From Escherichia phage muut, in sequence record NC_052657.1: 64,000 nucleotides of DNA. One strand, 5' to 3'. Below the pieces are notes generated by a model. The model was not told where the DNA came from. It saw only the letters and a list, made by a program, of their open reading frames with translations, and did no database searches. Shown one piece after another: positions 3,191 to 46,801 of this stretch (the first letter of the stretch is position 1; every line of letters begins with the position of its first letter). A program made the position numbers and the translations under genes.

Positions 3191-3203
3191 GGAGGATAGT
3201 AGA

Positions 3204-7583: not shown

Positions 7584-7585
7584 AC

Positions 7586-7607
7586 AAAGGGGCGAAAGCC
7601 CCTTTTA
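7586..7607 (+). terminator. rho-independent terminator
   Basis: GGGGC-GAAA-GCCCC hairpin followed by TTTT. Confidence 0.6.
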
Positions 7608-7621
7608 TAAGGAGTGCAAAC

Positions 7622-13887: not shown

Positions 13888-13897
13888 GGAGAAAACC

Positions 13898-15291: not shown

Positions 15292-15320
15292 ACAGAAAAA
15301 CAGAAGAGGAGAAGATTAGC

Positions 15321-15731: not shown

Positions 15732-15733
15732 TA

Positions 15734-18046: not shown

Positions 18047-18783
18047 TAGAACGAAAACCCTTACCAGATAGAGATTACTTGTTATCAAGGTTTAGTGTGG
18101 AGAATGGTCGTCTTGTTTGGAAACCTAAACCTTCTACAACAAAAGAGAACAAAAGGTGGAATAGCAGATACGCAGGGAAGATTGCAGGGACTATTGATAA
18201 AGCTGGTTACTCTCATGTCAAAATAGATGGTATTGTATACTTGGAGCACAGAGTTTGTTTTAAAATGTATCATAATTACTGTCCAGATGTTATAGACCAT
18301 GATGACGGCAATAAACTTAATAATGCGGAAAGTAATTTATTGGATAGTAACTATTTATTAAATAATAACAATAGACACGTGGATGGGTTAGAAGGTATTT
18401 ATGAAAAGGATGGTGTTTTTCTTTGGGTTATAAACTACAACCAAGAAACTTTCTCTGTTTCAGGTTTCAAAACTAAAGAGGAAGCTATTGTAGCTAGAGC
18501 TTTAGCAAAACAAGAAATTTTGAAAGGATCTTATATCAAAAAAGAAAAGAAGCGTATAGATAACACTTCAGGATTAAGCTGTGTGTTTGTGGCAACAAGA
18601 GAGAGAACATTCTTTTTCAAGTTTGTGTTTGACAAGATCACGTATTGCAAATATGGTTTCAACGATCCAGAGAGATGTGCTATAGCTCTGGAGAAACTAA
18701 GATTGAAGGTGATGAAAGAAAAATATAAACCTGCAAATAAAAGCATTTGCGAAAAATATAAGGAGGAGATTTATGCCGCGTAG
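18043..18783 (+). CDS. HNH homing endonuclease with AP2-type DNA-binding domains
   Basis: GY..V.IDG..YLEHRV...IDHDDGNKLNN HNH_3 pattern; two AP2-like repeats. Confidence 0.55.
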   Translation: MIERKPLPDRDYLLSRFSVENGRLVWKPKPSTTKENKRWNSRYAGKIAGTIDKAGYSHVKIDGIVYLEHRVCFKMYHNYCPDVIDHDDGNKLNNAESNLLDSNYLLNNNNRHVDGLEGIYEKDGVFLWVINYNQETFSVSGFKTKEEAIVARALAKQEILKGSYIKKEKKRIDNTSGLSCVFVATRERTFFFKFVFDKITYCKYGFNDPERCAIALEKLRLKVMKEKYKPANKSICEKYKEEIYAA

Positions 18784-19588
18784 AGTCATATTCATAACTG
18801 GTGCAGGACTATCTGTGGATAGCGGTATCCCAGCTTTTAGAACAGATACTTCTTCAGGGAAGGCGTTATGGTCTTCTTATGATCTTTTTGAGGTCTGTGA
18901 CATTTTCAACTTCCGTGACGGTTATCAGCAAGAACAAGGTGTTCTTGATGCTATGGGTGGTTTAGATGCAGAAGGATATAACCTCTACCGTAAAACTCAC
19001 GACTTTTACAATAAACGTCGCGTGGAATTAGAGAAAGTTGACCCGAATCCAGCACATCTTCAGATTGGAGAATGGTTCAAAAAATATGGCCCAGAACGAA
19101 TTATTAACATTACTACTAACGTGGATGACCTCCTTGAACGAGCAGGAGTAGATAGGGAAGAAGTGCTACATGTGCACGGTTTTCTTCCTGAAATTACTTT
19201 TCAAAGAAAAGCTGGACAACCTACAATTGTAAAAGATGTTGGTTATCAAGCCATAGATGTAGATGACTACCATTATGTAAAACCTAATGTAATTTTCTTT
19301 GGGGAAGCTGCTCCACTTTACACGGATATGTATCATATTTTTGATACTTTGACCATGCAAGATTTGGTTGTTGTAGTAGGATGTTCAAACCAAGTTATCA
19401 ATTTTAATTGGGAATTATTCCCTGCACTTAATATGGGTACAAAAATGATCGTTGTTAACCCAGGAATTAATTACGAAGAAACTCTTCTTTACGAAGACAG
19501 AGGAGTTTTTGTTTATCGAGAAAAGGCCGCAGATGCTTTTAGCAATCCTGCTTTCATAAAAATGATAGAAGATCATTTGACTAAGTAA
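18773..19588 (+). CDS. Sir2-family NAD-dependent deacylase/ADP-ribosyltransferase-like protein
   Basis: ITGAGLSVDSGIPAFR, ITTNVDDLLERAG, VVVGCS motifs. Confidence 0.75.
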   Translation: MPRRVIFITGAGLSVDSGIPAFRTDTSSGKALWSSYDLFEVCDIFNFRDGYQQEQGVLDAMGGLDAEGYNLYRKTHDFYNKRRVELEKVDPNPAHLQIGEWFKKYGPERIINITTNVDDLLERAGVDREEVLHVHGFLPEITFQRKAGQPTIVKDVGYQAIDVDDYHYVKPNVIFFGEAAPLYTDMYHIFDTLTMQDLVVVVGCSNQVINFNWELFPALNMGTKMIVVNPGINYEETLLYEDRGVFVYREKAADAFSNPAFIKMIEDHLTK

Positions 19589-19956: not shown

Positions 19957-19991
19957 AAAGCCCCTAGAATCACTTCTAGGGGTTTTATTTT
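19957..19991. terminator. bidirectional terminator at convergence of rightward and leftward blocks
   Basis: CCCCTAGAA-TCAC-TTCTAGGGG hairpin flanked by A-run and T-run. Confidence 0.45.
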
Positions 19992-20064: not shown

Positions 20065-20286
20065 CTATAGATCTCGTTCATATAATTCAATTATCAATTC
20101 ATCCTCTGCTGTTATCGTACCAATTTGCCAAGTATGAAGATAAACCTCTGTATAAGAGTGTATCTTACTATCTAACAAGCACAACCACGTATTGTTGCTT
20201 ACCTTTTCTTGAATATGAACCTTAACCACGAAAGGGTGAGGGTTATCTACTAAGAAACCAATACTACCTTCTACAACTACAGACAT
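20065..20286 (-). CDS. hypothetical protein (73 aa)
   Basis: AGGAGG RBS. Confidence 0.5.
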   Translation of the reverse strand: MSVVVEGSIGFLVDNPHPFVVKVHIQEKVSNNTWLCLLDSKIHSYTEVYLHTWQIGTITAEDELIIELYERDL

Positions 20287-20332
20287 AATACCTCCTATTG
20301 TTTATGCTAAGACAAATAAAAACACACATACA

Positions 20333-20358
20333 AGAAAACCCGCCGAAGCGGGTTTATG
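20333..20358 (-). terminator. rho-independent terminator
   Basis: AAACCCGC-TTCG-GCGGGTTT then TTCTTG on minus strand. Confidence 0.5.
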
Positions 20359-20360
20359 TG

Positions 20361-20684
20361 TTATACAATGTGTTTTGTTTTAACGTGCGAAGATTTAAAA
20401 ATCTTATTATGTAATGAAATACAACTATCACGGAACACATAGTAGTTAACAACATCTGGTTTATCAACACAGAGTGTAGCCACAACTTTCATAGGTATAG
20501 ATACATTCTCACGAAGAGTAACACTACCTTTCAAACGTTCAGATGAAATGTGAATCAAACCTTCTTTTTCATCAATGATAACTTCTTTAACATTTTTGAA
20601 ATTATAACAAGAGTTGTCAACATAAGATACCCTTGCTTTTGTTTGCTTCTGTTTAGGACGAGAACCAGTGTTTATTTTTTGCAT
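20361..20684 (-). CDS. hypothetical protein (107 aa)
   Basis: AAGGA RBS. Confidence 0.5.
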   Translation of the reverse strand: MQKINTGSRPKQKQTKARVSYVDNSCYNFKNVKEVIIDEKEGLIHISSERLKGSVTLRENVSIPMKVVATLCVDKPDVVNYYVFRDSCISLHNKIFKSSHVKTKHIV

Positions 20685-20692
20685 AGTTTTCC

Positions 20693-20980
20693 TTATTTGC
20701 TTTCACGAGCAAAATAATAATTTTCATATTCATTACGTGTAACGATTTCTGGATGATCAGGTTCACCGTAACTAAGTTTAATTTCAGGATACACTTTGGT
20801 GTTGAATAGACACGTAACACCTCTCATATAATATCCTGTAGGACTTAAAACAACATCATCTTCACTTACACTTGAGAATTTTATTTCACCATTAGTATCT
20901 TTGACGACAATAAGAGCATGTTCAGGCCAATCAAGATTCTCTTCTTTCAGTTTTTCATAAACTTCTTGCACTAGTTCCAT
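20693..20980 (-). CDS. hypothetical protein (95 aa)
   Basis: GAGGAGG RBS. Confidence 0.55.
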   Translation of the reverse strand: MELVQEVYEKLKEENLDWPEHALIVVKDTNGEIKFSSVSEDDVVLSPTGYYMRGVTCLFNTKVYPEIKLSYGEPDHPEIVTRNEYENYYFARESK

Positions 20981-20989
20981 ATTGCCTCC

Positions 20990-21163
20990 TCAGATTACAA
21001 ATTTTTCTTCTTCTGGTTTCTCGTAGTTGGGAGAATAAACGTGGGATGGATTAAAACCTTTAAAGCTACCTCGCCCTTTTCGTGGACAATTGAATGTTTT
21101 AGCTTTGTGATCACCAAAAGATTTACCACAATGTACACATTTATAATTGGTATCTTTGAACAT
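20990..21163 (-). CDS. small zinc-finger protein (57 aa)
   Basis: GGAG RBS; CVHCGK...CPRKG; replaces ORF-track 20995..21192 in another frame. Confidence 0.45.
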   Translation of the reverse strand: MFKDTNYKCVHCGKSFGDHKAKTFNCPRKGRGSFKGFNPSHVYSPNYEKPEEEKFVI

Positions 21164-21214
21164 TTTACTCTCCTTTGAAAGATAGGCTGCACAGCAGTAC
21201 AGCCTTTTAAAAAA

Positions 21215-21319
21215 TTAGTGTTTAAATTTTTCGATTACTTCGTCAACTTTAGCGATGATAACATCTTGGTACTTGTGACCAAAATAACCAACAACAACAC
21301 CAACAATAAACGTCATCAT
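21215..21319 (-). CDS. small hydrophobic peptide (34 aa)
   Basis: ATG directly after upstream stop, AAGGAGAAG RBS. Confidence 0.3.
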   Translation of the reverse strand: MMTFIVGVVVGYFGHKYQDVIIAKVDEVIEKFKH

Positions 21320-21919
21320 TTACTTCTCCTTTTTAACTATAATGGCTTCTTCATTCAGAGTAAACAGCAAGGAAGATGTATCACCAACACACCTTGCACC
21401 TGGAATGAGTTCTAAAATTTTAGAGGATATAGCAATAGTATCTTCATCCAGTACATATTCTCCAGGTAACAATCTTAATGTTATTGGAAAATCTACGGAT
21501 GCCAAACCAGAGAACATCCCATCATTAAGAAGAACAACTTCTAAACCGTTACCTTCTTGTTGAGCATTATGCACTTTTTCCGGTAAGAAGTCAATACATT
21601 GATTTAAAATTTCCACATTTAATTCTACACCAGTACGAGCTTTATAAACTCTAGCCAAATCTATGATCCGAGGATCAATACTGGCGTAAGGGGATTCTAG
21701 GTGTTTTGGATCAATAGGAGCAACGCGCAATTTACCATCGAGAGATATCCACGTTACAATCCACATTTCACCAATCCCAGGTTGATCTCGCGCAGTAAGG
21801 AATTCTACTAATGCTCCAGGATTAGGCATTATGTAATCTTGTGTGATCAACATGTTCTTTACTCGCAAAAGCATTCCTGGCTTTAGTAAGCCCTTCTCAC
21901 CACTCCAATATTCTTTCAT
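21320..21919 (-). CDS. hypothetical protein (199 aa)
   Basis: ATG with GCAGGAG RBS 45 nt inside ORF-track ORF. Confidence 0.5.
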   Translation of the reverse strand: MKEYWSGEKGLLKPGMLLRVKNMLITQDYIMPNPGALVEFLTARDQPGIGEMWIVTWISLDGKLRVAPIDPKHLESPYASIDPRIIDLARVYKARTGVELNVEILNQCIDFLPEKVHNAQQEGNGLEVVLLNDGMFSGLASVDFPITLRLLPGEYVLDEDTIAISSKILELIPGARCVGDTSSLLFTLNEEAIIVKKEK

Positions 21920-21932
21920 TTTTACTCCTGCT

Positions 21933-22205
21933 TTAATGTCGTAGTTCACTAAACTTACAAACAAAGTGAACGTTAAGAAAAGTTAGTTTTCGATCTGGTG
22001 TAAACTCTGTTACTGTTTTATACACCTGTGCAATACCGAACCTGTTGACAGCAGGTACTGACAATTGGCTTATACATTTCATAGCTGACAGTTTTGCCTC
22101 TTCTTCAGATGCAAAATAAGTAAACATACCTTCTTCGTCAACTATAATTTCTTGTGTAACACAATCTACAAAACAAAAGAAAACATTAGGTAATTTTTCC
22201 GACAT
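21933..22205 (-). CDS. hypothetical protein (90 aa)
   Basis: ORF, weak RBS. Confidence 0.45.
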   Translation of the reverse strand: MSEKLPNVFFCFVDCVTQEIIVDEEGMFTYFASEEEAKLSAMKCISQLSVPAVNRFGIAQVYKTVTEFTPDRKLTFLNVHFVCKFSELRH

Positions 22206-22206
22206 A

Positions 22207-22419
22207 TTAGTTGTTCCTGTACTTAGAGAACAAAGTATTGACTAACCAGTCAGCAAACAGTAATCCGAGTGTACCAATACCGTAACCGATAAGCATAATG
22301 TAAGGCACTGCCTTATTTTCATTACCTGTCATTACTTCAGGAAAAATCAAAAACACAATACCGTTACCAACGATAATCCAGAACATAAGAAACACAAACA
22401 TACGAAGCAACATTGTCAT
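22207..22419 (-). CDS. small membrane protein (70 aa)
   Basis: AAGGAGG RBS; two hydrophobic segments. Confidence 0.5.
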   Translation of the reverse strand: MTMLLRMFVFLMFWIIVGNGIVFLIFPEVMTGNENKAVPYIMLIGYGIGTLGLLFADWLVNTLFSKYRNN

Positions 22420-22420
22420 A

Positions 22421-22603
22421 TTATTCTTCCTCCTTCACTTCTTCAACTTTACGAAGCATACGTTTATCAAATGTAGCTTTCTGTAGTTGTTCATTAACAT
22501 CAAACCACACCACTTCGCAAGTATCGTAGGTAGATACCATTACAGTCATTAACATTTCTTCACTAGCAAGACGTACAATATCACCTGTTTTAATATTTAC
22601 CAT
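22421..22603 (-). CDS. hypothetical protein (60 aa)
   Basis: GGAGGAG RBS. Confidence 0.45.
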   Translation of the reverse strand: MVNIKTGDIVRLASEEMLMTVMVSTYDTCEVVWFDVNEQLQKATFDKRMLRKVEEVKEEE

Positions 22604-23007
22604 AACTCCTCCAGAAGTTTACCAAGTTTAGTTTTAAATTCATTATCCCACGCTATACGAACTATGTCAAGATCACCTTGTGCATTACGTTTTGTATCTA
22701 AGTAGTAACCACCATGCTCATAGCGGTGTTTTATATGCTCGATCAGACGTTCTTTACCACTCTTGGATAAATAGTCATCAAATTCCCCATTGAAAAGGTC
22801 TAAGATTGTTTGTCTATTATCTCCTAATTGAGTGATTCTAAAACTAATCAAAGATCCCTGTAAACCTATATCTGTTTGTTTAAGAGAAAACCCATGACCA
22901 AAGCCGCCTGTAACTATAACAAGCGGTTTTCCTGTGATAGAGCTTTTAATAACATCTTGCTTAGGTTCTGCCAAAGATGTTAGAAACTCTTTTAACCATT
23001 TGAACAT
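22597..23007 (-). CDS. hypothetical protein (136 aa)
   Basis: GGAGAG RBS. Confidence 0.5.
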   Translation of the reverse strand: MFKWLKEFLTSLAEPKQDVIKSSITGKPLVIVTGGFGHGFSLKQTDIGLQGSLISFRITQLGDNRQTILDLFNGEFDDYLSKSGKERLIEHIKHRYEHGGYYLDTKRNAQGDLDIVRIAWDNEFKTKLGKLLEELW

Positions 23008-23112
23008 AAACTCTCCTGTGTGGCGTGGCTTTGCCTAAGCGCCGAAGGCGCGGATCAAATATAAGCTGAATTTATTACGCCCAGGTAGCCAGGGCGCATA
23101 AATATCAGAAAT

Positions 23113-23361
23113 TTACCATCGAATAACTATTCGAGTAAAGTTTTCATCGTAATGAGATGTTTCTGTATCAATAAAAGTTGAAAAACCTTCAGCATCCAAG
23201 CTAACTTTTACGAAAGTTGGATAGAGCGTGTATATAGCAGCTTCTCTGTCTCCATCTTTAGCTGCTCTTTCAATATACGCGTAGACGTTTTGTAAACTCT
23301 CTTTTGCTTTGTTAAGTTCTGCGTTTTCTGCCAGTTCTCTCATTTTATCTGCTACAGTCAT
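23113..23361 (-). CDS. hypothetical protein (82 aa)
   Basis: ATGA overlap with upstream gene. Confidence 0.5.
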   Translation of the reverse strand: MTVADKMRELAENAELNKAKESLQNVYAYIERAAKDGDREAAIYTLYPTFVKVSLDAEGFSTFIDTETSHYDENFTRIVIRW

Positions 23362-23621
23362 TTGTCAGTATCCTTTTCAATAAATCCTGTGGTTTTACAA
23401 GGCACACATTCATACATTTGTCCAACATCTGCAACTACCCAACCCATTCCACTGCAATAAGGGCAGATTGTTTTGTTCTCTTTAGCATACACAGCCAGAA
23501 GTCTTTCTTCTAGCTTATTGTAATCAGCAAGAAGAACATAATCCCCTTCTGGATCTGGTACAATATCACATTGACCAGCAGCACCTTGGCTGTACACCTC
23601 TAAGTCATATCGTGTAACCAT
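23358..23621 (-). CDS. hypothetical protein with CxxC pairs (87 aa)
   Basis: ATG overlapping upstream stop (TAATG), GGAG RBS; paralog of 28765..28989. Confidence 0.45.
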   Translation of the reverse strand: MVTRYDLEVYSQGAAGQCDIVPDPEGDYVLLADYNKLEERLLAVYAKENKTICPYCSGMGWVVADVGQMYECVPCKTTGFIEKDTDK

Positions 23622-23839
23622 TATTCCCACTCCGCAATCAGTTTTGGATTTTCTGCACGAGAATAGAATGTTGTAATGTCACCGTAAGTGTACTCTTGTT
23701 CCGACAGTTTTACAAGAGAGATCATTTCACGATCTGGAGTACCGGAGATCCAATCGAACACAGCAACACCCCGAGGTGTTACATAGAAACCAGATGTATT
23801 ACCCGTAAACTTATCTTTTGCTTTATATAATTTGTACAC
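23621..23839 (-). CDS. hypothetical protein (72 aa)
   Basis: GTG start with GAGGAG RBS. Confidence 0.45.
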   Translation of the reverse strand: MYKLYKAKDKFTGNTSGFYVTPRGVAVFDWISGTPDREMISLVKLSEQEYTYGDITTFYSRAENPKLIAEWE

Positions 23840-23884
23840 TTTCTACTCCTCATAGATAAAATCTATTAAAAACCTGCTATCAAT

Positions 23885-23945
23885 CGGTACAAACAGTTTT
23901 ACTTTTCGTAAAAAACATGCTACCCTAATCTTATATACCGAGCGA
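23885..23945 (+). promoter_or_regulatory. conserved element copy A (18-mer AAAAACATGCTACCCTAA plus GAGCGAnAGCGAG)
   Basis: Near-identical to element at 52327-52433; plus orientation inside a minus-strand gene block. Confidence 0.3.
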
Positions 23946-24046
23946 TAGCGAGGTAGAGAATATTCCATGTTATACATGGAAAGAGTATATGTAATGTTAC
24001 TAACTCTATAACTAACTATATACTCTTTATACCTTACTTACTACTC

Positions 24047-24289
24047 TTATTGAAGTTCAAAGATATCCCCATCTCCATCATATCCATACTCTAACTCTCC
24101 TGTATCATATAATACAATAAAGTCTGTATCATCTTCAATAAAAGATTTAGCATAATCTACTAACTCTTCATTATCTTCATACCCTTCCAGGTACTCAATA
24201 CGACCATTGATACATTTAGCTGCAACAACTCCTGGGCCATTGCTTGGAGTCCACTCACTGTATACTCGCATACCTAATTCTTTAATCAT
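24047..24289 (-). CDS. hypothetical acidic protein (80 aa)
   Basis: ATG with GAGGAG RBS 21 nt inside ORF-track ORF. Confidence 0.45.
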   Translation of the reverse strand: MIKELGMRVYSEWTPSNGPGVVAAKCINGRIEYLEGYEDNEELVDYAKSFIEDDTDFIVLYDTGELEYGYDGDGDIFELQ

Positions 24290-24506
24290 TGTTTGTCTCC
24301 TCATAATCAATGTAGTTGTAACACTTATTCTTTAAGAAATCTTCTGCTTGTTTCTTGTGTTTTAGAATGATGCACTTCTCTTTATTCTGTTCTACATCAT
24401 TATGTAGATTGTATAAGTTAGATGCACCATACAGAATACCAATTAACAAAAGCAAAAAGATTGCTGTTGATAACAAAAATTGTTGCAACTTGTTTACAGA
24501 CTTCAT
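24282..24506 (-). CDS. small membrane-anchored protein (74 aa)
   Basis: AGGAGGG RBS; N-terminal TM; paralog of 29294..29503. Confidence 0.5.
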   Translation of the reverse strand: MKSVNKLQQFLLSTAIFLLLLIGILYGASNLYNLHNDVEQNKEKCIILKHKKQAEDFLKNKCYNYIDYEETNND

Positions 24507-24559
24507 AAACCCTCCTTATCGTTAGTACACATTGATACTAACAAGAAGTTAAGATCGTG

Positions 24560-24733
24560 TCAACATCTTTGTGTTAATTTTATCCACTGTTCACATTCTT
24601 CTTTTGTGTCGTACTCTACAGGCTTCCCTGTATCATTTCCACAACCATCTCCGAACGTAGCCCACCAGGAGAATAGAAAACAAGTTTCTCTTACTCTCCA
24701 CTTATTGGCATAGGGTACAACATAATAACTCAT
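24560..24733 (-). CDS. small protein (57 aa)
   Basis: ATGA overlap with upstream stop; below ORF-track cut-off. Confidence 0.35.
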   Translation of the reverse strand: MSYYVVPYANKWRVRETCFLFSWWATFGDGCGNDTGKPVEYDTKEECEQWIKLTQRC

Positions 24734-24981
24734 AAGATTGTGATCCTTAGCTCATTTTCTAAGGTATGTCTCACACACTCTTTGAAATTGTTATCAATAT
24801 ACACCACACGTACTCCATGAGGTGTGTCTTTACATTCAAACACATTATATACAGTATCAGATAAGACATGTTGTACGTTTACTTGTCCAATGCCATTTTT
24901 AACCACAACCATTACTTTCAGTAAACTTGTATGGTTTTTAACTTCATCTTCTACATATGCTACAACATCTTTGATATTCAT
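24730..24981 (-). CDS. hypothetical protein (83 aa)
   Basis: GGAG RBS. Confidence 0.5.
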   Translation of the reverse strand: MNIKDVVAYVEDEVKNHTSLLKVMVVVKNGIGQVNVQHVLSDTVYNVFECKDTPHGVRVVYIDNNFKECVRHTLENELRITIL

Positions 24982-25277
24982 GGTTTCTCCTGTTTAAGTA
25001 CGATATAAGATTGACGAGATTTCCATCGCCCTATCTTAACAAGGCAAATAATGCCTCTCTTTAACAGATATTTCATATCTTCGTCATAAGCTGTTTGCAA
25101 TTGCCACTTACTGTTAACAGGAAGAGAACCATGTACCCTTAAATGAGCTAACAGATACTTTCTTCGCTCCTTCCCATAAGGCAGATATTGCCATTCTTTC
25201 TTTGATACAGGTTCATGTACTTTACGATGCCAGTAAGTAAGGTGTCTTCTTTTATGTAAACCCCTATTCCTTACCAT
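24978..25277 (-). CDS. hypothetical basic protein (99 aa)
   Basis: GGAGG RBS. Confidence 0.5.
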   Translation of the reverse strand: MVRNRGLHKRRHLTYWHRKVHEPVSKKEWQYLPYGKERRKYLLAHLRVHGSLPVNSKWQLQTAYDEDMKYLLKRGIICLVKIGRWKSRQSYIVLKQEKP

Positions 25278-25516
25278 TATACCTCTACCTCCGTTACCCC
25301 AGGATCTCTAGTCCAGGTATAGTAGAGCATACCATCTTCTTTCAGTGCAATGCGATCACTTTCGTCTCGAAGATATAGGTCACATACTACGCGCAGTTGC
25401 GGATCTGATCCGAGTAGTTCTGAAACAATAAGGTCATCACCGCTCATACGAGCAACAATCACTGCATATTGACCAGTATCTGCATCAAAAATTGGTTGTC
25501 CGATGTTTAATTGCAT
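25277..25516 (-). CDS. hypothetical protein (79 aa)
   Basis: AAGGAG RBS. Confidence 0.5.
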   Translation of the reverse strand: MQLNIGQPIFDADTGQYAVIVARMSGDDLIVSELLGSDPQLRVVCDLYLRDESDRIALKEDGMLYYTWTRDPGVTEVEV

Positions 25517-25701
25517 TGTGTTGTCTCCTTATTCAGTACGTTGTTTTGTGCTGCGCACCAGCACTCATAAAAACCTTGGGTTAATGGCATAGTGTAGTTT
25601 CCAGAAGGATCTCTTTCGAGATCCCCATCTGCATAACAACCACTACCTAAGAACCATTTTTCAAAATCGGATAAATCATCCCAATCTACACTATTTTTCA
25701 T
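25507..25701 (-). CDS. hypothetical protein (64 aa)
   Basis: ATG 1 nt after upstream stop; the 5' part of the ORF-track ORF overlaps the upstream gene. Confidence 0.4.
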   Translation of the reverse strand: MKNSVDWDDLSDFEKWFLGSGCYADGDLERDPSGNYTMPLTQGFYECWCAAQNNVLNKETTQCN

Positions 25702-25702
25702 A

Positions 25703-26161
25703 TTATACTGTCTTATACCCGACAATAGCAACCTGATTCGTAGGCTTCCAACGACCAATAATCTCACCAGAAATCTCTGTGCTACCATTTATGTATTGGT
25801 AATGGGTATCATCATGATTAACCCACGCCATAACGTCAAGAGTAGGGGTTTTGACGTGTACCAGTAGTGTAGCCCATTCTGGGGCTTCTTTAATATCCAC
25901 AGAATCTTGCCAATCTTCTTCGATGTGCCAAGTAGGTTCACCATCAACATCTGTAACGAAGAAACGAGCTTTCATACGTTTAAAGAACATTGGTGTATAC
26001 CCATGATCGCACTCTGGGATAAAATCATCCATCGTCTCGTCATAGGTGAAATATTGTCCATCTTTGTAATGAAAAGATGCACAAAATAGTTCATTACGAG
26101 CAGGAACATGCCATACAGCTACAAAACTACGACCATGTGGATAATGTTTAACCTCTTTCAT
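25703..26161 (-). CDS. hypothetical protein (152 aa)
   Basis: ORF. Confidence 0.5.
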   Translation of the reverse strand: MKEVKHYPHGRSFVAVWHVPARNELFCASFHYKDGQYFTYDETMDDFIPECDHGYTPMFFKRMKARFFVTDVDGEPTWHIEEDWQDSVDIKEAPEWATLLVHVKTPTLDVMAWVNHDDTHYQYINGSTEISGEIIGRWKPTNQVAIVGYKTV

Positions 26162-26176
26162 AGTTTTCTCCTTATT

Positions 26177-26521
26177 TTATTCAAAAGAATCAATTCGATT
26201 TTGTTCTATGTCAATTGCAGCATCTAAGATAAGTTTTAATGCTTCGAATTGCAAGTCTTCCTCTAAAGAGAAGACATATAAAACAACAGATTCCAAGTAA
26301 GACAGCACCCCAAGACTAAGAGTTGCAATTTCTACTCCTGCATCGGAGAAGCCTGTTTGCAAAATTTCTTTGAAGAAACGTTGTTTATCAACAATAGCAG
26401 ATAAAATAAGCGTTTTACGCTCGTCTGCTGATCGTACTGTGCAGTATATGTTGCTAAAAGAATCTAACCACATTTTGATCATACCTTGTCGGTACATAAG
26501 GATTTCAATATCAGCCAACAT
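26177..26521 (-). CDS. hypothetical protein (114 aa)
   Basis: ATG with GGAGAA RBS 1 nt after upstream stop. Confidence 0.45.
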   Translation of the reverse strand: MLADIEILMYRQGMIKMWLDSFSNIYCTVRSADERKTLILSAIVDKQRFFKEILQTGFSDAGVEIATLSLGVLSYLESVVLYVFSLEEDLQFEALKLILDAAIDIEQNRIDSFE

Positions 26522-26522
26522 A

Positions 26523-26690
26523 TTATTTCTCCTCTGGAGAAAGGTTTGCATTAACTTGATAGTAAAAATCAAAATCCTTGTGTTGATCGCACCATTCTTG
26601 AGCTTCTTTAAATGACGCAAATTGCATAGTGAATGTTGCCATCCACGTGTTCATACTTTTATTGAACTTGTCGATAAAAAATGTTTGCAT
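26523..26690 (-). CDS. hypothetical protein (55 aa)
   Basis: ATG with GGGAGGA RBS overlapping upstream stop. Confidence 0.45.
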   Translation of the reverse strand: MQTFFIDKFNKSMNTWMATFTMQFASFKEAQEWCDQHKDFDFYYQVNANLSPEEK

Positions 26691-26908
26691 TATTCCTCCC
26701 ATTTTATCCAAAGGCAGTATTCTGGAACATAAACCTCCTTCCCTTTGTTATTTACAAAGGTGTACTCCACAAATTCTGCTTTATATGTTTTGTTATATTC
26801 CTGTGCTGCTGGCACAGGACATTTTGTAATGCGCGTTTCAGTCCAACGGCGGTGTATAACCGCCTTGTTCTTTGGATCAAACGGATGTATAAAGTGTGTT
26901 TTACTCAT
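26690..26908 (-). CDS. hypothetical protein (72 aa)
   Basis: ATG overlapping end of upstream gene. Confidence 0.4.
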   Translation of the reverse strand: MSKTHFIHPFDPKNKAVIHRRWTETRITKCPVPAAQEYNKTYKAEFVEYTFVNNKGKEVYVPEYCLWIKWEE

Positions 26909-27305
26909 GCGCCATTTCCACAAGATTTTTAATCATAGTTTCTCGACAGAGATTCCACATATCTGAAGCAACCATAGAAGCATATTCATCGGGGTTGGAT
27001 TCTGGTAAAACCTCTTTAACTGCTTCTGGCGTTGGGCTGCACATAGCAGGTAGTGCTTTAAGTGCATCTTCAATAGAGAGCTTCTTACCTTCACTGTAAA
27101 TAACTTCGTAAGCATAGTCATTTACATCTTCTGGAATATCTTGATCCAGGTAACGCACAGTCGAGTTATGCATTTTGTTCATAGCTTCACTAACACCAGC
27201 GCCACAAAGCTGTGCAACTTCTTTAGAGATACAGTCACAAATAACAACTTCGTAAGGCTTTCCACCATAATACTGCGCATTATATTTGATTTTAACAGAC
27301 CACAT
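26901..27305 (-). CDS. hypothetical protein (134 aa)
   Basis: AAGGAGAG RBS. Confidence 0.5.
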   Translation of the reverse strand: MWSVKIKYNAQYYGGKPYEVVICDCISKEVAQLCGAGVSEAMNKMHNSTVRYLDQDIPEDVNDYAYEVIYSEGKKLSIEDALKALPAMCSPTPEAVKEVLPESNPDEYASMVASDMWNLCRETMIKNLVEMAHE

Positions 27306-27315
27306 ATTACTCTCC

Positions 27316-28002
27316 TTATTTAACGTGTTTTAGCAATTCAATGTTAGCAGAATAATTTTCACCACAATTGGTAACGCTCAACAGTGACCATTTACAAGAG
27401 AATACACCTTTTAGATGATCTGGAACACACATTAGCGGAACATAAACTGTTTCTGAATCTTGTGTTTGCTCTGTTTTGTTAACATTGCAACAAAATGGCA
27501 ATACATCATCATGAATCATTTTACATTCACTCAAATTATCTAACATATGTGAAACTTGTTCTGAAGTTTCAAACATTTGTGCTTCACAAGCCAGCGCACC
27601 AACCACTTGATAAGCCTCTCCACACAAATCTTCTAGCTCTAAGATACGTTCAGACATAGCTTCAATGATGGCTGATCGTGCTTTCACCTTAGTTTCTGCT
27701 TCTTTAATTTTCTTCTCAAGTTCTGCAATGTACTTCAGTAGTGCACTAACAACATCTGGAGTATTTTCTTGATCATCTTGGGAAATTTTTACCAAAGAAG
27801 AAGCTGCTTTGCAGCGCACTTTAGGCTCTACGTAGCCAAAAGTCATATTTTCCGAAGAAGATTGTTGTGAAAACCAGTGTTTGTTCGAAGAAAACACAGG
27901 TTCATCTTCAAACCAGAACACATCTCCAGTGATATCACGAGCCATGAAATTTGCATTGTCTGGAACTTCGTAACGATGCCCTTCAAACATAATCTCTTTC
28001 AT
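27316..28002 (-). CDS. hypothetical protein (228 aa)
   Basis: GGAGGA RBS. Confidence 0.5.
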   Translation of the reverse strand: MKEIMFEGHRYEVPDNANFMARDITGDVFWFEDEPVFSSNKHWFSQQSSSENMTFGYVEPKVRCKAASSLVKISQDDQENTPDVVSALLKYIAELEKKIKEAETKVKARSAIIEAMSERILELEDLCGEAYQVVGALACEAQMFETSEQVSHMLDNLSECKMIHDDVLPFCCNVNKTEQTQDSETVYVPLMCVPDHLKGVFSCKWSLLSVTNCGENYSANIELLKHVK

Positions 28003-28586
28003 TACACATCCTCCATTTGGAACATCTCTTTGTGGTTAGAATAGATCTGTTTGAAAATCTTGTCAAGGCGTTCATATGATTCTTTATGCTCTTGTTTCCA
28101 TCCGTGATTTCGGATTTTATCTGCCAGATCATAAACCTCGCATAAAACTTTGGCAAAGTTGGTATTACCTATAGCACAAGCCTCAAAACCTTGAACTAAA
28201 CCCTCTACATCATACCACGTATAGTCAGAGTCACTAGGAGGATTCCCTGCATCGGCTAAACGTTGCCTCACCCATTCGATACGTTTTTCATTTAAATGGC
28301 ACTTACCTTCTCTACACTCTTGTTCTAATTCTTCTTTAGATTCGTTGAATGGGTGAAGGACAGGAAGTTCTGCTTTTTGCAATTGCTCCAGGTATTCACC
28401 TACAATGCGCATAGCTTCACTGTGTGTACACTTTCTGCCTGTGTGCCAATAACGGAAGATACTTTCTGTTAAACAGATGTTTTTACTAAACATCGCATTG
28501 TCTTTAACATTCGATCTATTAACCCAGTCTAAGTAATATACATAAAACTGCAATAATTCATAACTGCTTGGTATAATTTTACTCAT
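28002..28586 (-). CDS. hypothetical protein, paralog family A (194 aa)
   Basis: AAGGAGAGG RBS; shares LLQFY..W, LHPFN, ERV.WV.DRI with 29496..29864 and 31647..32021. Confidence 0.5.
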   Translation of the reverse strand: MSKIIPSSYELLQFYVYYLDWVNRSNVKDNAMFSKNICLTESIFRYWHTGRKCTHSEAMRIVGEYLEQLQKAELPVLHPFNESKEELEQECREGKCHLNEKRIEWVRQRLADAGNPPSDSDYTWYDVEGLVQGFEACAIGNTNFAKVLCEVYDLADKIRNHGWKQEHKESYERLDKIFKQIYSNHKEMFQMEDV

Positions 28587-28595
28587 AACCTCTCC

Positions 28596-28763
28596 TTAAT
28601 TGTGAAAAATGTTATCAATCAATATGACTAATAATACAAGGATAGAAGGGAGTAGGAACAGAAATCTTAACATTATGTGATGCGTGTGAGAAGCGGCTTT
28701 AGCGCCAGCCGCCAATAAGCCTACTAATCCTACAATAAAGAGCAGTTGTTCAGGGACACCCAT
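28596..28763 (-). CDS. small membrane protein (55 aa)
   Basis: ATG 1 nt after upstream stop; two hydrophobic stretches. Confidence 0.35.
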   Translation of the reverse strand: MGVPEQLLFIVGLVGLLAAGAKAASHTHHIMLRFLFLLPSILVLLVILIDNIFHN

Positions 28764-28764
28764 A

Positions 28765-28989
28765 TTATGGAACACTTGGATACTCCGTAAGTTCGGCTAA
28801 TAGTTGGATATGTGGACACGTGAATTGTTGTCCTGGATAGCGTGAGCTAATATCATCCAGTAAAGCAATCACAGCATTGTGCAATGCTTCGTAATCCTCA
28901 TAATACACCATCTCTCCATTAGGATCTTCAACAATATCACAGTGACAAGCGTGAGCAGTACACGCATCCCATTCCAGACGTTTTACCAT
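28765..28989 (-). CDS. hypothetical protein with CxxC pairs (74 aa)
   Basis: AGGAGGG RBS; paralog of 23358..23621. Confidence 0.5.
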   Translation of the reverse strand: MVKRLEWDACTAHACHCDIVEDPNGEMVYYEDYEALHNAVIALLDDISSRYPGQQFTCPHIQLLAELTEYPSVP

Positions 28990-29035
28990 AAACCCTCCTA
29001 TTTATATATCAAGAAACACAAAAGAATAACATCTA

Positions 29036-29284
29036 TCACCAAACCGTTACTACTCCGGTACGTAGCGTCTCTTCATGTCCCCAAATATCCGCTTCAATTG
29101 TAATTACAACCCACTCCGTGTTCCACTGAATACCAGTGATCTCTGTGAGATGTGCAGCTTCACGTTGTAGTGAGGCTGTGTCTGTAAGAGACGCACGTAA
29201 AGCATCCAATTCTTGTTCAATTTTGGTACGTTCTTCTTCGGTAATCGGTGTACCAACACGATCAAAGGTAAAAATATCTAACAT
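29036..29284 (-). CDS. hypothetical protein (82 aa)
   Basis: AGGAGGG RBS. Confidence 0.5.
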   Translation of the reverse strand: MLDIFTFDRVGTPITEEERTKIEQELDALRASLTDTASLQREAAHLTEITGIQWNTEWVVITIEADIWGHEETLRTGVVTVW

Positions 29285-29293
29285 ACTTCCCTC

Positions 29294-29503
29294 CTAATTA
29301 TAATTCACATAGCGCCCACAATCCTGTTCAAGAAATTTTTCAGCATCCCTTTGGTGCTTTAACACGATGCACTGTTCTTTTTTAGCTTCACTTTCACGAG
29401 CTTCTCTTGCCATATACTCACCTAAACGAATGATACTAGAGAATAACACGTATGCAAGAATAAGACAAACAGTGATTGCACAGAAAGTTTTAAACTTAAC
29501 CAT
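29294..29503 (-). CDS. small membrane-anchored protein (69 aa)
   Basis: ATG with GGAGGA RBS; paralog of 24282..24506. Confidence 0.45.
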   Translation of the reverse strand: MVKFKTFCAITVCLILAYVLFSSIIRLGEYMAREARESEAKKEQCIVLKHQRDAEKFLEQDCGRYVNYN

Positions 29504-29864
29504 TGTATTCCTCCATATCACGAATACGATCAATCACCCATTGTACACGTTCTTTATTAAGGTGTGCAATGCCTAGTTCTGTTTCCGTAAAGTAGTGCGA
29601 GAAATCCGTATTAAACGGATGTAAATGGTTCAAACCCGCTTTCTTAAATTGTTCCTTCATTTCCTCTCGTACAGAGGATTGGAGCTTTGATACATTCTCA
29701 ACATCTTTTATCCAAGCAATATTGTACAAGAAGTCTACAAGACACGTGCAAAGACCATAATGCTTTTTGCTAAAGTTTGTATCTTCTTGTTCTAACCACC
29801 ACTCATAAAATTGTAGCAAATAGGGGCTGCTTTTCATGCTACACACTTTACTATTCTCTTGCAT
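29496..29864 (-). CDS. hypothetical protein, paralog family A (122 aa)
   Basis: AAGGAGAAG RBS. Confidence 0.5.
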   Translation of the reverse strand: MQENSKVCSMKSSPYLLQFYEWWLEQEDTNFSKKHYGLCTCLVDFLYNIAWIKDVENVSKLQSSVREEMKEQFKKAGLNHLHPFNTDFSHYFTETELGIAHLNKERVQWVIDRIRDMEEYNG

Positions 29865-29873
29865 GACTTCTCC

Positions 29874-30173
29874 TTAATACCAGTCTACGATCACTGAATC
29901 TACAAAGCCCTCTTTGGTGTTTAAAGCATACACCTTACTAAGCCCATGCTCTCGTAGTGCTTCCATAGCAAGATCAATCAAATCAACTTGTCGTTTCTTT
30001 GCTTGTTCATTTTTTGGATAGTCATCCAAACCGAAAACAGATGGTTTAAATGCTTTGGAGTATTTGCCAGTCTTAGCCTGATCATAACAGTCCTGAATAA
30101 TTTCCTCAATAGGAAACCATAAACCTTCTCCACTTTGCTTTGCAATACAGCGCAGTTTTTCTGTAATAGTCAT
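29874..30173 (-). CDS. hypothetical protein (99 aa)
   Basis: AAAGGAGAGG RBS. Confidence 0.5.
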   Translation of the reverse strand: MTITEKLRCIAKQSGEGLWFPIEEIIQDCYDQAKTGKYSKAFKPSVFGLDDYPKNEQAKKRQVDLIDLAMEALREHGLSKVYALNTKEGFVDSVIVDWY

Positions 30174-30382
30174 TCTTCCTCTCCTTTCAATTTACACTCA
30201 AAGATACCATTCTTAATGTTATCTGTCAAATAAAGGCTATCTTCTATCTCTTCTTTTGTATACACATAAGCCTCCTTTTCCACGTCTGTCAGACCTTGCA
30301 TCGGAGCTAGTAGCCACCAACCCCGCCAGTCAAACATAGGAGACTTATCAGATACACGAAGAATGTATCTGTCATTACACAT
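30170..30382 (-). CDS. hypothetical protein (70 aa)
   Basis: ORF, weak RBS. Confidence 0.4.
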   Translation of the reverse strand: MCNDRYILRVSDKSPMFDWRGWWLLAPMQGLTDVEKEAYVYTKEEIEDSLYLTDNIKNGIFECKLKGEEE

Positions 30383-30385
30383 ATA

Positions 30386-30838
30386 TTATACGATGTTCAC
30401 ACTAATATCTGCAACACCAACAAGAGAATAGACTTCAACTACACTCTGTGTACGATCCAGCTTGTAACGTTTCGCCTCTTTTTCAACTTCCTCACGGGAG
30501 ATGGTTTCCATGATCGGAACTCCATCAACTACAAGCAGGTATTTTTCTTCGTGTTTACTTTTTGGTGCTTCCTCTAAGACTTCTACAAAATACTCAAACT
30601 CACTTTTTACGAGCAACGTGTAACACTGAAGAAAGTCTCCTTCATTTTGAGCGATAATTTCTTGTTCTCCTGCTAAGGATTGCAAAGCAGTGACACCATA
30701 CCAATCATCCACATCTAATACACGAAAATAGGAATCACCTAAAAAAGAAGCAATCCTGCTATTGCACTCAGACATATTAGCAAACTTACGGATATAAGAT
30801 GGGTTTTTAAAACGATACACTTTACCAATTTCAAACAT
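30386..30838 (-). CDS. hypothetical protein (150 aa)
   Basis: AAGGAG RBS. Confidence 0.5.
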   Translation of the reverse strand: MFEIGKVYRFKNPSYIRKFANMSECNSRIASFLGDSYFRVLDVDDWYGVTALQSLAGEQEIIAQNEGDFLQCYTLLVKSEFEYFVEVLEEAPKSKHEEKYLLVVDGVPIMETISREEVEKEAKRYKLDRTQSVVEVYSLVGVADISVNIV

Positions 30839-31041
30839 TACACAACTCCTTATTGTTCAAGAGTAAAAGGAATGATTTCACCATAGCTGTATTGCATGGC
30901 ATTCACTTCTGCTTCTGCACGTTGTGCTAGTTCTAATGTTGCACAGATTTTATAAGGTACAGTGCTGCATTGGCTCCAGCCTGGGGGTATTCTTTGTTAC
31001 TAAGTACACAGTAGTTTGTTTATCCATCTTCTTTTCCTCTT

Positions 31042-31257
31042 TTAAACAGTATATTCGTGTGGAAGGAAAACATAGTCTTCTCCTTCAACAACATCAACTA
31101 CTTCCCACTTCCAGCCAGGTACTTGGCTCATTGTCTTGAATGACACATAAGCAACTCCGCTGTAAGCGATATCGGCATCTAACATAAGAGGGAAAGCAAC
31201 GTGTGTCAACCCCAGATAACCACAATTATTTTCAATACACACCTGAATGCTTTTCAT
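31042..31257 (-). CDS. hypothetical protein (71 aa)
   Basis: ATG with GGAG RBS 1 nt after upstream stop. Confidence 0.45.
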   Translation of the reverse strand: MKSIQVCIENNCGYLGLTHVAFPLMLDADIAYSGVAYVSFKTMSQVPGWKWEVVDVVEGEDYVFLPHEYTV

Positions 31258-31258
31258 G

Positions 31259-31576
31259 TTATGCTCCATTAAAGACGGGGCGCGTAGCGTTACGTTCATC
31301 ATCAACTGTAATAAGGTTTTTCATAACCATAACACCCTGAATATAGCCTAGCCAACGATGGCGTTTGGTTTCAGACATACCATTACACCCATCCTGAATT
31401 TCATTCAACATCCACAGTAAGTGGGAAACACCTGTTTCACTAGTATCTGGATCTTCTACAGAACTAAGCATAGTTTCATAGCGTTCACAAATTTCTGGGT
31501 AGAATTCATAGTCCTGTTGTACATCTCGCATTTCTCGAATGGAGTGAGGATCAATATACAAAGCTAAGGTTCTCAT
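31259..31576 (-). CDS. hypothetical protein (105 aa)
   Basis: GAGAGG RBS. Confidence 0.5.
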   Translation of the reverse strand: MRTLALYIDPHSIREMRDVQQDYEFYPEICERYETMLSSVEDPDTSETGVSHLLWMLNEIQDGCNGMSETKRHRWLGYIQGVMVMKNLITVDDERNATRPVFNGA

Positions 31577-31646
31577 TTACACCTCTCATTAGTAGTTTGT
31601 TATGCGCGATATTGCATATCTTATGGAACACAGTGTACAGACATTT

Positions 31647-32021
31647 CTATTCAATGCAAGCATTATTTGCATCTTCGATTCTGTCTTTCACCCATTGAAG
31701 ACGTAACGTGTTGGTATGACACGCCAAGTCTATACACTCTGAAAGGTAATCCATGCAATCTACATTGAACGGAAGATTGTAGTCCAGTCCTGCACATGTA
31801 AATTGTTTCCTCATTTCGTATTTCAAACTATCCAACAAACGATCACGCCATCTTTTATCTTCTTCTCTAGTTGTCTCACCAACAAAATCATCTACATAAT
31901 CTACCAGACAACCACATAAGCCACTCGTTGTGCGATTCATTGCAGGATAGTTGGCAATCCATGCTTTATAGAAGCGAAGCAATGTTGCACTACTCAACGG
32001 AACATTTTTACTCTCTTGCAT
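31647..32021 (-). CDS. hypothetical protein, paralog family A (124 aa)
   Basis: GAGAGGAG RBS. Confidence 0.5.
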   Translation of the reverse strand: MQESKNVPLSSATLLRFYKAWIANYPAMNRTTSGLCGCLVDYVDDFVGETTREEDKRWRDRLLDSLKYEMRKQFTCAGLDYNLPFNVDCMDYLSECIDLACHTNTLRLQWVKDRIEDANNACIE

Positions 32022-32369
32022 GATAATCTCCTCTCATCGTTAGTCATCTTTCATGGCAATCATCAATCACCAACATCATACGATCAATCTTAGGGAATTA
32101 CAATCGAATTATCATAGGGGATTCCTATCAATTATTCTATATATACCTATTATTTTTAACACACCCCTTTGTACATAATATAGACAAATAAATATCTATG
32201 CCACAAAAATTTTCTGGTATACCCGATTTATTTCGACACACCCCCTTTTCATAAGCGTAAAGTCAATAATATCAATAACTTGCCGCAAAATACTGCTCGC
32301 TTGCGAGAGGTGCTTAACGCGATTTTCAGCGCCCCGCGATTTTTCCCGACCGTCCCCCTCAAATATCAA

Positions 32370-32400
32370 TGAGAATAATTATCATTTGCATTATCATTCA
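32370..32400. repeat. Fur-box-like palindrome
   Basis: GAGAATAATTATCATTTGC, 14/19 to GATAATGATAATCATTATC. Confidence 0.35.
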
Positions 32401-32554
32401 ATGACTTATAAGACTTTTGATTATTTTCTGAGCAAGAAAGGTACTACTCACAACAAAACAGATAAATTCTAAGTAAATCAATGGCTTGGCAAGTCTAAAC
32501 ATCTATATACACCTTGCCAAATGAAATGATCTGGCGTGAAATAGTGCTACCCGT

Positions 32555-32580
32555 GGAAGATAGCTGATAATGATTATCAT
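32555..32580. repeat. Fur-box-like palindrome
   Basis: GATAATGATTATCATTTGC, 16/19 to Fur consensus. Confidence 0.45.
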
Positions 32581-33107
32581 TTGCATATTTTCTATACTAT
32601 AAAACGCACTAAAAATCAAGATAATTCTGATTTATTGCGCTTTTAAGAAAGTAGGCTCAACAAATAGGCTATAACTATGCTCAACAAATAACAATAATAG
32701 TATGAAAAATCATTTATTCAGATATAAATAATTTTGCGCAATAGTAGTAATATTTTTCTTGACAAGAAAGATTTCTTTGTGTTCACATAGCGCCCCCTGG
32801 AAGGTGGCGCATTATGATCATCAATGTCATTATTCACCATGTTTATTATTGCATAGCTTATTATTTAGCTTATATTATAGCCAATGTTCTAAACACTAGC
32901 TAATAATAACGCACCGCAACAATGTAAGGGATACAATATACCATGTATATTGTTGCGCTTGCAATTGTTGCAAGCTACATAAGCACAAATAATAACTATC
33001 GGTGATGGTTATTATGTGGGGTGTGTAGTTGCGTTATTATTAGCCGCCTATGTGTCCGGCATAGGCTGCTAATGATACGCTTGCGAATTATATTTCTTGT
33101 TATAGTT

Positions 33108-33175
33108 ATTGTATGAAATGATTACCACATGAAATGGTTACTGTATGCAATGATTACTGTATGAAATGATTAGTT
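33108..33175. repeat. four tandem ~16-bp direct repeats (iteron-like)
   Basis: GTATGAAATGATTAC / CATGAAATGGTTAC / GTATGCAATGATTAC / GTATGAAATGATTAG. Confidence 0.55.
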
Positions 33176-33189
33176 AGGTAATAAATAGG

Positions 33190-33470
33190 AAGGTAAAGGT
33201 TAGATCATAAATAGATAGGATATGAATTATTTAGTAATGTTACTAACGATTTAATAGTTACTTTGTGCAATAATTCGATAGATTATAGTTATAGTTTTAA
33301 AGGTTAGATAGATTATATTTAGCTTAGTAATGATTTATATTAGTTATTGTTGTTTAATATAAGGTTATCAATGAGATAGTAACAGTAAGTTATAAATAAA
33401 GGTTAGATAATTAGTTTTAATTTAGTTAGATAACTTATTATTTTATAGGTTAGATGGTCATAAGTTAAGA
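33190..33470. repeat. dispersed AAAGGTTAGAT repeats (4-5 copies)
   Basis: Copies near 33196, 33297, 33408, 33434, 33446 in AT-rich context. Confidence 0.45.
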
Positions 33471-33545
33471 ATGATTATCATTATTGCATTATGCAGCTTA
33501 TTGCATAAATAATCAGCTATAAATAAGAATGATTATCATTTAAGA
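33465..33545. repeat. two Fur-box-like palindromes
   Basis: AGAATGATTATCATTATTG and AAATAAGAATGATTATCAT; second is near-identical to 43383-43405. Confidence 0.45.
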
Positions 33546-46790: not shown

Positions 46791-46801
46791 TTTAACCCCT
46801 T

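Follow-up and report, generated by a model that had tools for sequence, protein, structure and literature searches.

Paralogous small-gene families in the left-terminal block of Escherichia phage muut, a phi92-like phage

The small genes at the left end of phi92-like phage genomes include several groups of related proteins, and here we examine three of them (families A, B and C) in Escherichia phage muut. The window analyzed is a 64,000-nucleotide (nt) stretch of sequence record NC_052657.1, within which positions 20065-32021 constitute an entire leftward operon of ~12 kb. In a megablast search that matched 122 phage records, the closest to this region is Escherichia phage Paula (98.7% over the full length), and the remaining matches are phi92-like myoviruses (Stephanstirmvirinae, Justusliebigvirus). 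According to the annotated records of phi92 and of Salmonella phage UAB_1, the genome is linear and bears a direct terminal repeat of 343 bp, and the small-gene block (gp001-gp036 in phi92) reads inward from the left end. Window positions 32657-32106 align to phi92 positions 1-554 at 96.8%, and the left physical end is therefore placed at ~32657, with the first start codon of the operon, at 32021, lying ~636 bp from it. The region holds more terminator-like sites than its shuffles do (24 against 7.0 +/- 2.5), the skew between G and C is negative across the whole block, consistent with minus-strand coding, and no Rfam families or tRNAs were found in or near it. The genes and features discussed below are collected in Table 1.

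Table 1. Genes and other features of the left-terminal block, in window coordinates except where a relative is named.
Feature	Coordinates	Strand	Description
A1	28002..28586	-	phi92 gp010 ortholog; A domain at residues 1-118 plus a 75-residue C-terminal extension
A2	29496..29864	-	phi92 gp006 ortholog; stand-alone A domain, 122 aa; overlaps the start of B2 by 8 nt
A3	31647..32021	-	A domain, 124 aa; first gene inward from the left terminal repeat; absent from phi92
B1	24282..24506	-	phi92 gp022; 74 aa, one N-terminal hydrophobic helix, C-terminal motif KE.C..LKH...AE.FL...C..Y
B2	29294..29503	-	phi92 gp007; 69-aa B1 paralog, translationally coupled to A2
C1	23358..23621	-	phi92 gp025; N-terminal ~44-aa module plus C-terminal zinc finger with two CxxCxGxG motifs
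C2	28765..28989	-	phi92 gp008; same N-terminal module, unrelated FTCPH-containing tail
phi92 gp009 (context gene)	28596..28763	-	55-aa membrane protein with two helices, directly upstream of A1
phi92 gp023 (candidate family D, member 1)	24047..24289	-	also the 3' partner in the C2 fusion-deletion
phi92 gp018 (candidate family D, member 2)	25277..25516	-	
Mosaic segment (A3 and upstream region)	31611..32198		90-92% nt identity to Schickermooser, of another genus (blastn of its left end)
Homolog of the phi92 343-bp left direct terminal repeat	32315..32657		from alignment to phi92; annotated in phi92 and UAB_1
Bidirectional terminator-like hairpin	19957..19986		distal end of the leftward block, at the junction with rightward genes
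A4 (relatives L001; L002; L005)	13604-13972; 13741-14100; 12804-13169		

All seven open reading frames (ORFs) of the three families lie intact on the minus strand, match the gene calls of deposited relatives, and are each preceded by an AGGAG-type ribosome-binding site. An earlier sequence-only reading of the region had grouped them by shared motifs and proposed an all-against-all alignment as the check; in that alignment, the similarities within each family are significant. Among pairs computed within the 38-gene block, the strongest is A2-A3 (BLASTP E 1.8e-19, 37% identity over 120 aa, shuffle z-score 28.2), followed by A1-A2 (E 4e-10, z 15.8), B1-B2 (E 2.7e-9, 45-50% over 30-33 aa, z 14.6), A1-A3 (E 2e-7, z 11.9), and C1-C2 (E 3e-5, 36% over 44 aa, z 9.7). 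All five stay at E<=8e-5 when set against the 797 six-frame ORFs of the whole window, where no other minus-strand pair of the block reaches E<1e-3. None of 5,000 shuffles reaches the observed Smith-Waterman score for any pair, the weakest Gumbel p value being 2e-6, or ~1.5e-3 after correction for 703 gene pairs, and independent PHROG profiles cross-match within each of the three families. Since alignment, shuffle statistics, and profile cross-matches agree, the families can be considered real. One could still argue that short ORFs such as these yield chance or compositional matches, or that the pairs are decaying duplicates without function, particularly as the C1-C2 match covers so few residues at so low an identity. 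However, the shuffle scores and the reciprocal profile matches speak against chance, and all the genes are intact in >100 genomes, evolve with ratios of nonsynonymous to synonymous substitution (dN/dS) of 0.05-0.36, and have orthologs in another genus, so that this explanation is effectively refuted.

Family A is the largest of the three. A hidden Markov model (HMM) of the family finds exactly three copies in the window; the three proteins match the same PHROG profiles and each other over ~110 residues, and A1, the copy with the extension, matches the family HMM at E 2e-31 along with phrog_27059 and phrog_2510. The motifs that had been proposed as common to the three hold in part: the proteins are homologous, but GLC.CLVD and an exact LHPFN are each found in only two of them. 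The signature that emerges from column frequencies across 111 members is L..FY / GLC / E...QF..AGL / PFN / (H)LN..R..WV, from which A1 deviates in having NIC for GLC. Searching with a profile of the three paralogs retrieves 724 representative clusters (50% identity level) at E<=1e-3, mostly stand-alone proteins of 95-135 residues, with some carrying two tandem domains and a few fusions. A tblastn search locates the family at 464 places in 176 phage records, up to nine per genome, with rV5-like, N4-like Erwinia, Salmonella, and Rhizobium phages among them. None of the 111 members matches any Pfam family, and no match was found in NCBIfam, PADLOC, or a sequence profile search of the PDB. Matches in BFVD are all uncharacterized phage proteins, every family A member is named "hypothetical" at its source, and the fusion partners in multidomain proteins are restricted to DUF551 and other PHROGs of unknown function; in one protein (P0005), a transmembrane region is fused to the A domain. 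Thus, family A is a widespread, uncurated ~110-residue phage domain, predicted to be all-alpha and variable in copy number.

The fold is predicted from an AlphaFold2 model of A2 built on the 111-sequence alignment (predicted local distance difference test score, pLDDT, 90.9; predicted template modeling score 0.82), with helices at residues 14-25, 32-35, 38-53, 58-75, 88-97, and 104-121. Comparison with PDB folds revealed no relative that is a known enzyme or a characterized takeover protein. Conserved columns are L16, F19, Y20, G37, L38, C39, E68, Q72, F73, L78, P83, and F84, together with N103, R106, W109, and V110. In the model, S13 and N103 each cap a helix at its N-terminus, and the aromatic residues are spaced i/i+3/i+4, as is usual in a protein core; because of this, much of the signature may be structural. 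The model may also hold a small polar site of C39, E68, Q72, and R106, which raises an alternative hypothesis, in which family A would be a small enzyme or ligand-binding domain with a site made of Cys39 (at a helix N-terminus), Glu68, Gln72, Asn103, Arg106, and the frequent His101, and with paralogs differing in substrate. The conservation of these columns (R106 100%, C39 99%, Q72 94%, N103 93%, E68 91%, H101 76%) and the retention of the family across very diverse phages are in line with such a site. However, no enzyme family is matched by sequence or fold, the N-cap positions of S13 and N103 fit a structural role, and H101 and C100 are not invariant, and we regard an enzymatic or ligand-binding role as unlikely. 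Less probable still is a role as DNA-binding regulators of transcription in the early program of the phage, given that the A proteins are acidic (isoelectric points, pI, of 4.9-5.5) and that their winged-helix matches are at noise level.

The number of family A copies varies considerably even among close relatives. Across the eight Justusliebigvirus genomes compared, each has two, three, or four: phi92 has two, the window three, UAB_1 and KKE7M three with a different terminal copy ("A4"), and EmilieFrey, Eryne, EC_OE_11, and ESCO32 four. Schickermooser, a Phapecoctavirus, has six copies, and Citrobacter phage Tr1 has eight genes carrying nine domains in its homologous block. A4 is 46-52% identical to A3 and lies between A3 and the terminal repeat, taking A3's place in UAB_1 and KKE7M. 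The paralogs are only 23-55% identical to one another, which indicates that the duplications are ancient, and they are older than the split of the genera. The terminal copy has a different history. A3 is 91% identical in amino acids and 92% in nucleotides to gene 2 of Schickermooser, in a segment of high identity (Table 1) that stands out from the remainder of the block, where nucleotide identity to that phage is <=76% or undetectable, and phi92 keeps only a 3' remnant of the gene. A3 is thus a cassette that is exchanged horizontally and occasionally deleted, and not a local duplication. Copies of family A have been gained, lost, and horizontally swapped, mostly at this terminal position. Outside the phi92-like phages, N4-like Erwinia phages carry family A within 3 kb of the genome end, and a lambdoid Citrobacter freundii prophage carries a member among small genes of unknown function between a CI-like repressor and the integrase. 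This prophage member led us to abandon the view that only virulent phages carry family A. In complete E. coli genomes, no match to the gene for a DUF551-A fusion was found.

Family B consists of two small proteins that are predicted to span the membrane once and that share an invariant pair of cysteines. The core shared by B1 and B2, KE(K/Q)C(I/T)(I/V)(L/F)KH...AE.FL...C..(Y/L).(Y), bears out the motif from which their relationship had been proposed, and neither cysteine varies in any of 11 sequences, among them Sch16, the only homolog from a Phapecoctavirus. The hydrophobic segments (Kyte-Doolittle 19-residue maxima of 2.41 at residues 10-28 of B1 and 2.55 in B2) are preceded by two lysines, the N-termini being MKSVNK and MVKFK, a pattern that predicts a bitopic N-in/C-out topology. 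Among the homologs found, family B is confined to Stephanstirmvirinae, and no homologs of B or C were found in phage Tr1. The overlapping A-then-B gene pair seen in A2 and B2 also occurs in Schickermooser (Sch15/Sch16) and is therefore kept across genera. B2 is 84-100% identical among close relatives whose neighboring genes are ~97-100% identical.

What had been described as a pair of related CxxC proteins turns out to be of a different nature. The similarity of C1 and C2 is significant, but it extends only from M1 to ~L44, with the core C-DIV-DP-G--V---DY--L, and C2 has no CxxC at all: it contains C-x4-C-x-C and a lone CPH, while C1 has CxxC twice, in the repeated zinc-finger motifs CPYCSGMG and CVPCKTTG. 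The Schickermooser ortholog of C1 (Sch46) consists of the finger without the N-terminal module, and that of C2 (Sch21) combines the module with a longer C-terminal domain. A metagenomic protein (P0178, contig L014) carries a ~80% identical module with a different tail, on a contig that has no nucleotide similarity to the window, and the module recurs with another C-terminus in P0177, described below. "Family C" is thus a ~35-44-residue N-terminal module found on unrelated C-termini, and since it is attached to such different partners, module shuffling and not gene duplication accounts for it. The AlphaFold2 model of C2 has low confidence (pLDDT 63) and gives only a hint of structure, a beta-hairpin (19-21/27-29) followed by a long helix (30-50). 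The C-terminus of C1 resembles the DnaJ-type zinc finger and anti-TRAP families (PF00684, PF15777) in having two CxxCxGxG motifs at DnaJ-like spacing, and the phi92 record annotates gp025 likewise. However, it consists of one finger unit without a J domain, the finger is not common to C2, and the Pfam scores (15-16 bits; 15.0 bits and E 0.031 for PF00684, whose gathering score is 32.7) fall below the cut-offs of 32-33 bits. A stand-alone 48-aa ORF with two CxxCxGxG zinc-finger motifs also occurs at 2728-2874 (+), downstream of a ribonucleotide-reductase-like gene, and is related to the C-terminal half of C1 (E 4e-4). Residues 2-48 of C2 match positions 4-50 of the Lar-like restriction alleviation profile phrog_3592 weakly (E 7.7e-4). 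A Lar-like identity of C2 is not supported, as the match covers only a quarter of the 182-position profile, there is no match to Pfam Lar_restr_allev at E<=1, and C2 does not have the CxxC zinc ribbon typical of Lar.

These separate histories bear on how the block was assembled. Repeated duplication within the block, as had been suggested, is a misleading description of families that are themselves real: the A paralogs predate the genera, A3 is exchanged, and C is a shared module. An alternative scenario is that all three pairs stem from one ancient segmental duplication of an A-B-C cassette, later spread apart by insertions. The order A2-B2-C2, contiguous as gp006-007-008 in phi92, does recur as A1...B1...C1 along the operon, and the three pairs are similarly diverged (31-45%). 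However, an order of the form XYZXYZ would arise by chance with a probability of 6/90 = 0.07, which is not significant, in Schickermooser the C1 ortholog does not carry the shared module and a single B is present, pointing to separate histories, and A has many more copies and independent dynamics. We consider a single cassette duplication to be an improbable origin.

Patterns of selection and deletion further characterize the block. In pooled Nei-Gojobori estimates against seven relatives, dN/dS is 0.10 for A1, 0.05 for A2, and 0.31 for A3, with the whole block ranging from 0 to 0.36. B1 and B2 are among the faster-evolving genes, at 0.36 (the block maximum) and 0.20, and are still under purifying selection. 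The description of these functions as diversifying therefore finds no support in selection, with dN/dS at 0.05-0.36 across the family members; each retained A paralog is old and under purifying selection. An apparent natural deletion is recorded in a 1,550-bp contig (L013, from SRR3713844) that is 97-98% identical to the window and joins position 28887 to 24181 at a TATGA(A/G)GAT microhomology of 9-10 nt. The junction fuses codons 1-31 of C2 to the last 42 codons of gp023, producing the chimeric protein P0177, and the 4.7 kb removed contain 15 genes (A1, gp009, gp011-gp021, and B1 among them), which would be dispensable if the junction comes from a viable phage. The gene gp023 may itself belong to a further family, D, together with gp018. 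The two are linked via Tr1 ORF 7480-7725 (E 7e-6 and 1e-6) and by reciprocal profile matches (E 3-7e-5); direct BLASTP between them is not significant, and the relation is transitive only.

Other genes of the block also vary between relatives. Of the eight genomes compared, three (the window, EmilieFrey, and Eryne) have an 82-aa gene between B2 and C2, at 29036-29284 in the window, which is absent from phi92, EC_OE_11, UAB_1, KKE7M, and ESCO32. The left block of Schickermooser (L009) holds three homologs of window gene 30386-30838 at or within 2501-4204, two of 31042-31305 (1577-1798/6168-6389), and two of 23621-23839 (15310-15757), each of which is single-copy in the window. Next to A3, a 1.5-kb non-coding, AT-rich interval (32022-33535, GC fraction 0.32), which includes the terminal-repeat homolog, separates two leftward gene blocks. 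It contains the repeats GAATGATTATCATT (four times), TAAAGGTTAGAT, and ATGATTAC(T/C)GTATGAAATGATTA (three times), and directly upstream of A3, CACACCCC(C)TT (twice). These repeat families are possibly packaging, origin, or early-promoter elements. At the opposite end, just across the convergent terminator, lies a gene for a Sir2-family NAD-dependent deacetylase (18773-19588, +), which is conserved in phi92, Schickermooser, and Tr1.

Elsewhere in the window, we note two AAA-type ATPase paralogs on opposite strands, 16 kb apart (62483-63655, +, and 45666-46829, -), which are 47% identical over 257 aa (E 2e-79). The proteins encoded at 49240-50253 (+) and 44401-45588 (-) have a C-terminal region of ~80 residues in common (33% identity, E 5e-7), one of the two carrying HTH_36 and a MUG113-like domain and the other CapR-homology repeats. 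Sugar-nucleotide enzymes of the RmlB-like (dTDP-glucose 4,6-dehydratase type) and RmlD-like kinds are encoded at 3398-4384 and 5775-6656 (+).

Existing resources have partly covered these families. In PHROGs, family A corresponds to phrog_2510, phrog_27059, and phrog_6418, family B to phrog_23204 and phrog_15662, and family C to phrog_22955 and phrog_23083, all of "unknown function". The window proteins match their own profiles at E 1e-138 to 1e-25, and sister profiles are also cross-matched, so that automatic clustering has already captured these proteins. Where PHROGs differ from our description is that each family is split into several clusters, which carry no information on function, fold, or copy number. 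All seven proteins fall below curated cut-offs in Pfam-A, NCBIfam, and PADLOC, and neither Pfam nor NCBIfam has a model for A, B, or C.

The setting of the block recalls several known systems. Early host-takeover genes are clustered at genome termini in the terminal-repeat module of SPO1, the pre-early region of T5, the class I genes of T7 with gp0.3/Ocr, and the left-end early genes of N4, and T4-like phages have hyperplastic accessory regions. The phi92-like block similarly packs ~40 small ORFan genes densely on one strand, right beside a direct terminal repeat, with gene content that varies between close relatives and genes that are apparently dispensable. It differs from these modules in that no sequence or fold similarity to their proteins was found. 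Small early proteins of the inner membrane or periplasm that act on the envelope are also known, namely Imm, Sp, and RI of T4. B1 and B2 are like them in being shorter than 80 aa, in pairing one hydrophobic helix at the N-terminus with a short C-terminal domain that contains the two invariant cysteines, and in lying in an accessory block; no sequence relationship to the T4 proteins was found.

By analogy with these systems, the block may well be expressed early and encode dispensable accessory proteins for host interaction, a reading that we hold tentatively; for any specific activity of its proteins, our confidence is far lower still. The A paralogs would be acidic cytoplasmic binding proteins in which conservation mostly serves the fold, and the surfaces, being divergent, would allow each copy to neutralize or redirect a different host factor, in takeover or in counter-defense. 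At least A2 may act jointly with B2, the membrane protein whose translation is coupled to its own. The B proteins would sit in the membrane with the N-terminus inside, presenting a disulfide-stabilized C-terminal motif of ~35 residues to the periplasm, and could have the envelope as their site of action, with superinfection exclusion or control of DNA entry as examples, and C could serve as a shuffled interaction or oligomerization module. The accessory role that the sequence-only reading had suggested fits the position at the genome end, the flux in A copy number, the L013 deletion, the occurrence of A in early or accessory regions elsewhere, and the predicted membrane topology of B. Its more specific suggestion of host takeover or superinfection exclusion found no homology to any known takeover, anti-defense, or superinfection-exclusion protein to lean on.

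Several observations weigh against an early, host-directed role. No match to characterized takeover, anti-defense, or exclusion proteins was found in PHROGs, Pfam, NCBIfam, or PDB sequences and folds, and there is no sign of positive selection in the pooled dN/dS against the seven relatives. The near-invariant C39, E68, Q72, N103, and R106 would also fit a catalytic or ligand-binding site. "Early" is a designation drawn from position and analogy, the block being likened to other phages by gene layout; sigma-70 consensus sites are not enriched (60 against 55 +/- 7 in shuffles), and our literature search found no transcriptome or functional study of the block in phi92-like phages. The L013 deletion is known from one 1.5-kb contig, which may not come from a viable phage. 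The N-in/C-out topology of the B proteins is a prediction from hydropathy and charge, and the phi92 record carries a SignalP 3.0 signal-peptide call for gp022 (B1), implying cleavage. Upstream of its tandem family A gene, phage Tr1 encodes a protein that equals gp009 in size and architecture and has no sequence similarity to it; homology among these small two-helix membrane proteins beside A genes was considered and is not detectable. As many as 23% of the genes in the Tr1 block encode membrane proteins, and with such neighbors being common in these blocks, the adjacency of A and membrane proteins could be coincidental.

A more far-reaching version of the host-interaction reading would see in family A an undescribed phage fold and a copy-number-variable multigene family of early inhibitors, present in virulent and temperate phages of Proteobacteria, in which each paralog acts on a different factor of host defense or housekeeping and some are paired with a small membrane partner (A2-B2, gp009-A1). 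This is speculative, and we would consider it rather doubtful as it stands. Experimentally tractable members of family A exist in the BASEL phages Bas61 and Bas62. The PhageMaP phage Bas63, a Felixounavirus, is not relevant to the block.

The overall pattern is familiar from large virulent phages, whose genomes end in a plastic block of small genes without recognizable relatives. The practical value of our analysis as it stands is modest, amounting to a cleaner description of three families, one of which (A) merits a domain-family entry. The by-product of most use is that family A is now delineated as a large uncurated domain with a predicted fold that has no solved relative. In phi92-like phages, the left-terminal block evolves as genes are gained, lost, or swapped horizontally and as modules are shuffled. 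If the A proteins are inhibitors of host factors or of defense systems, they would constitute a large untapped source of such proteins, with 724 clusters and two to nine copies per genome.

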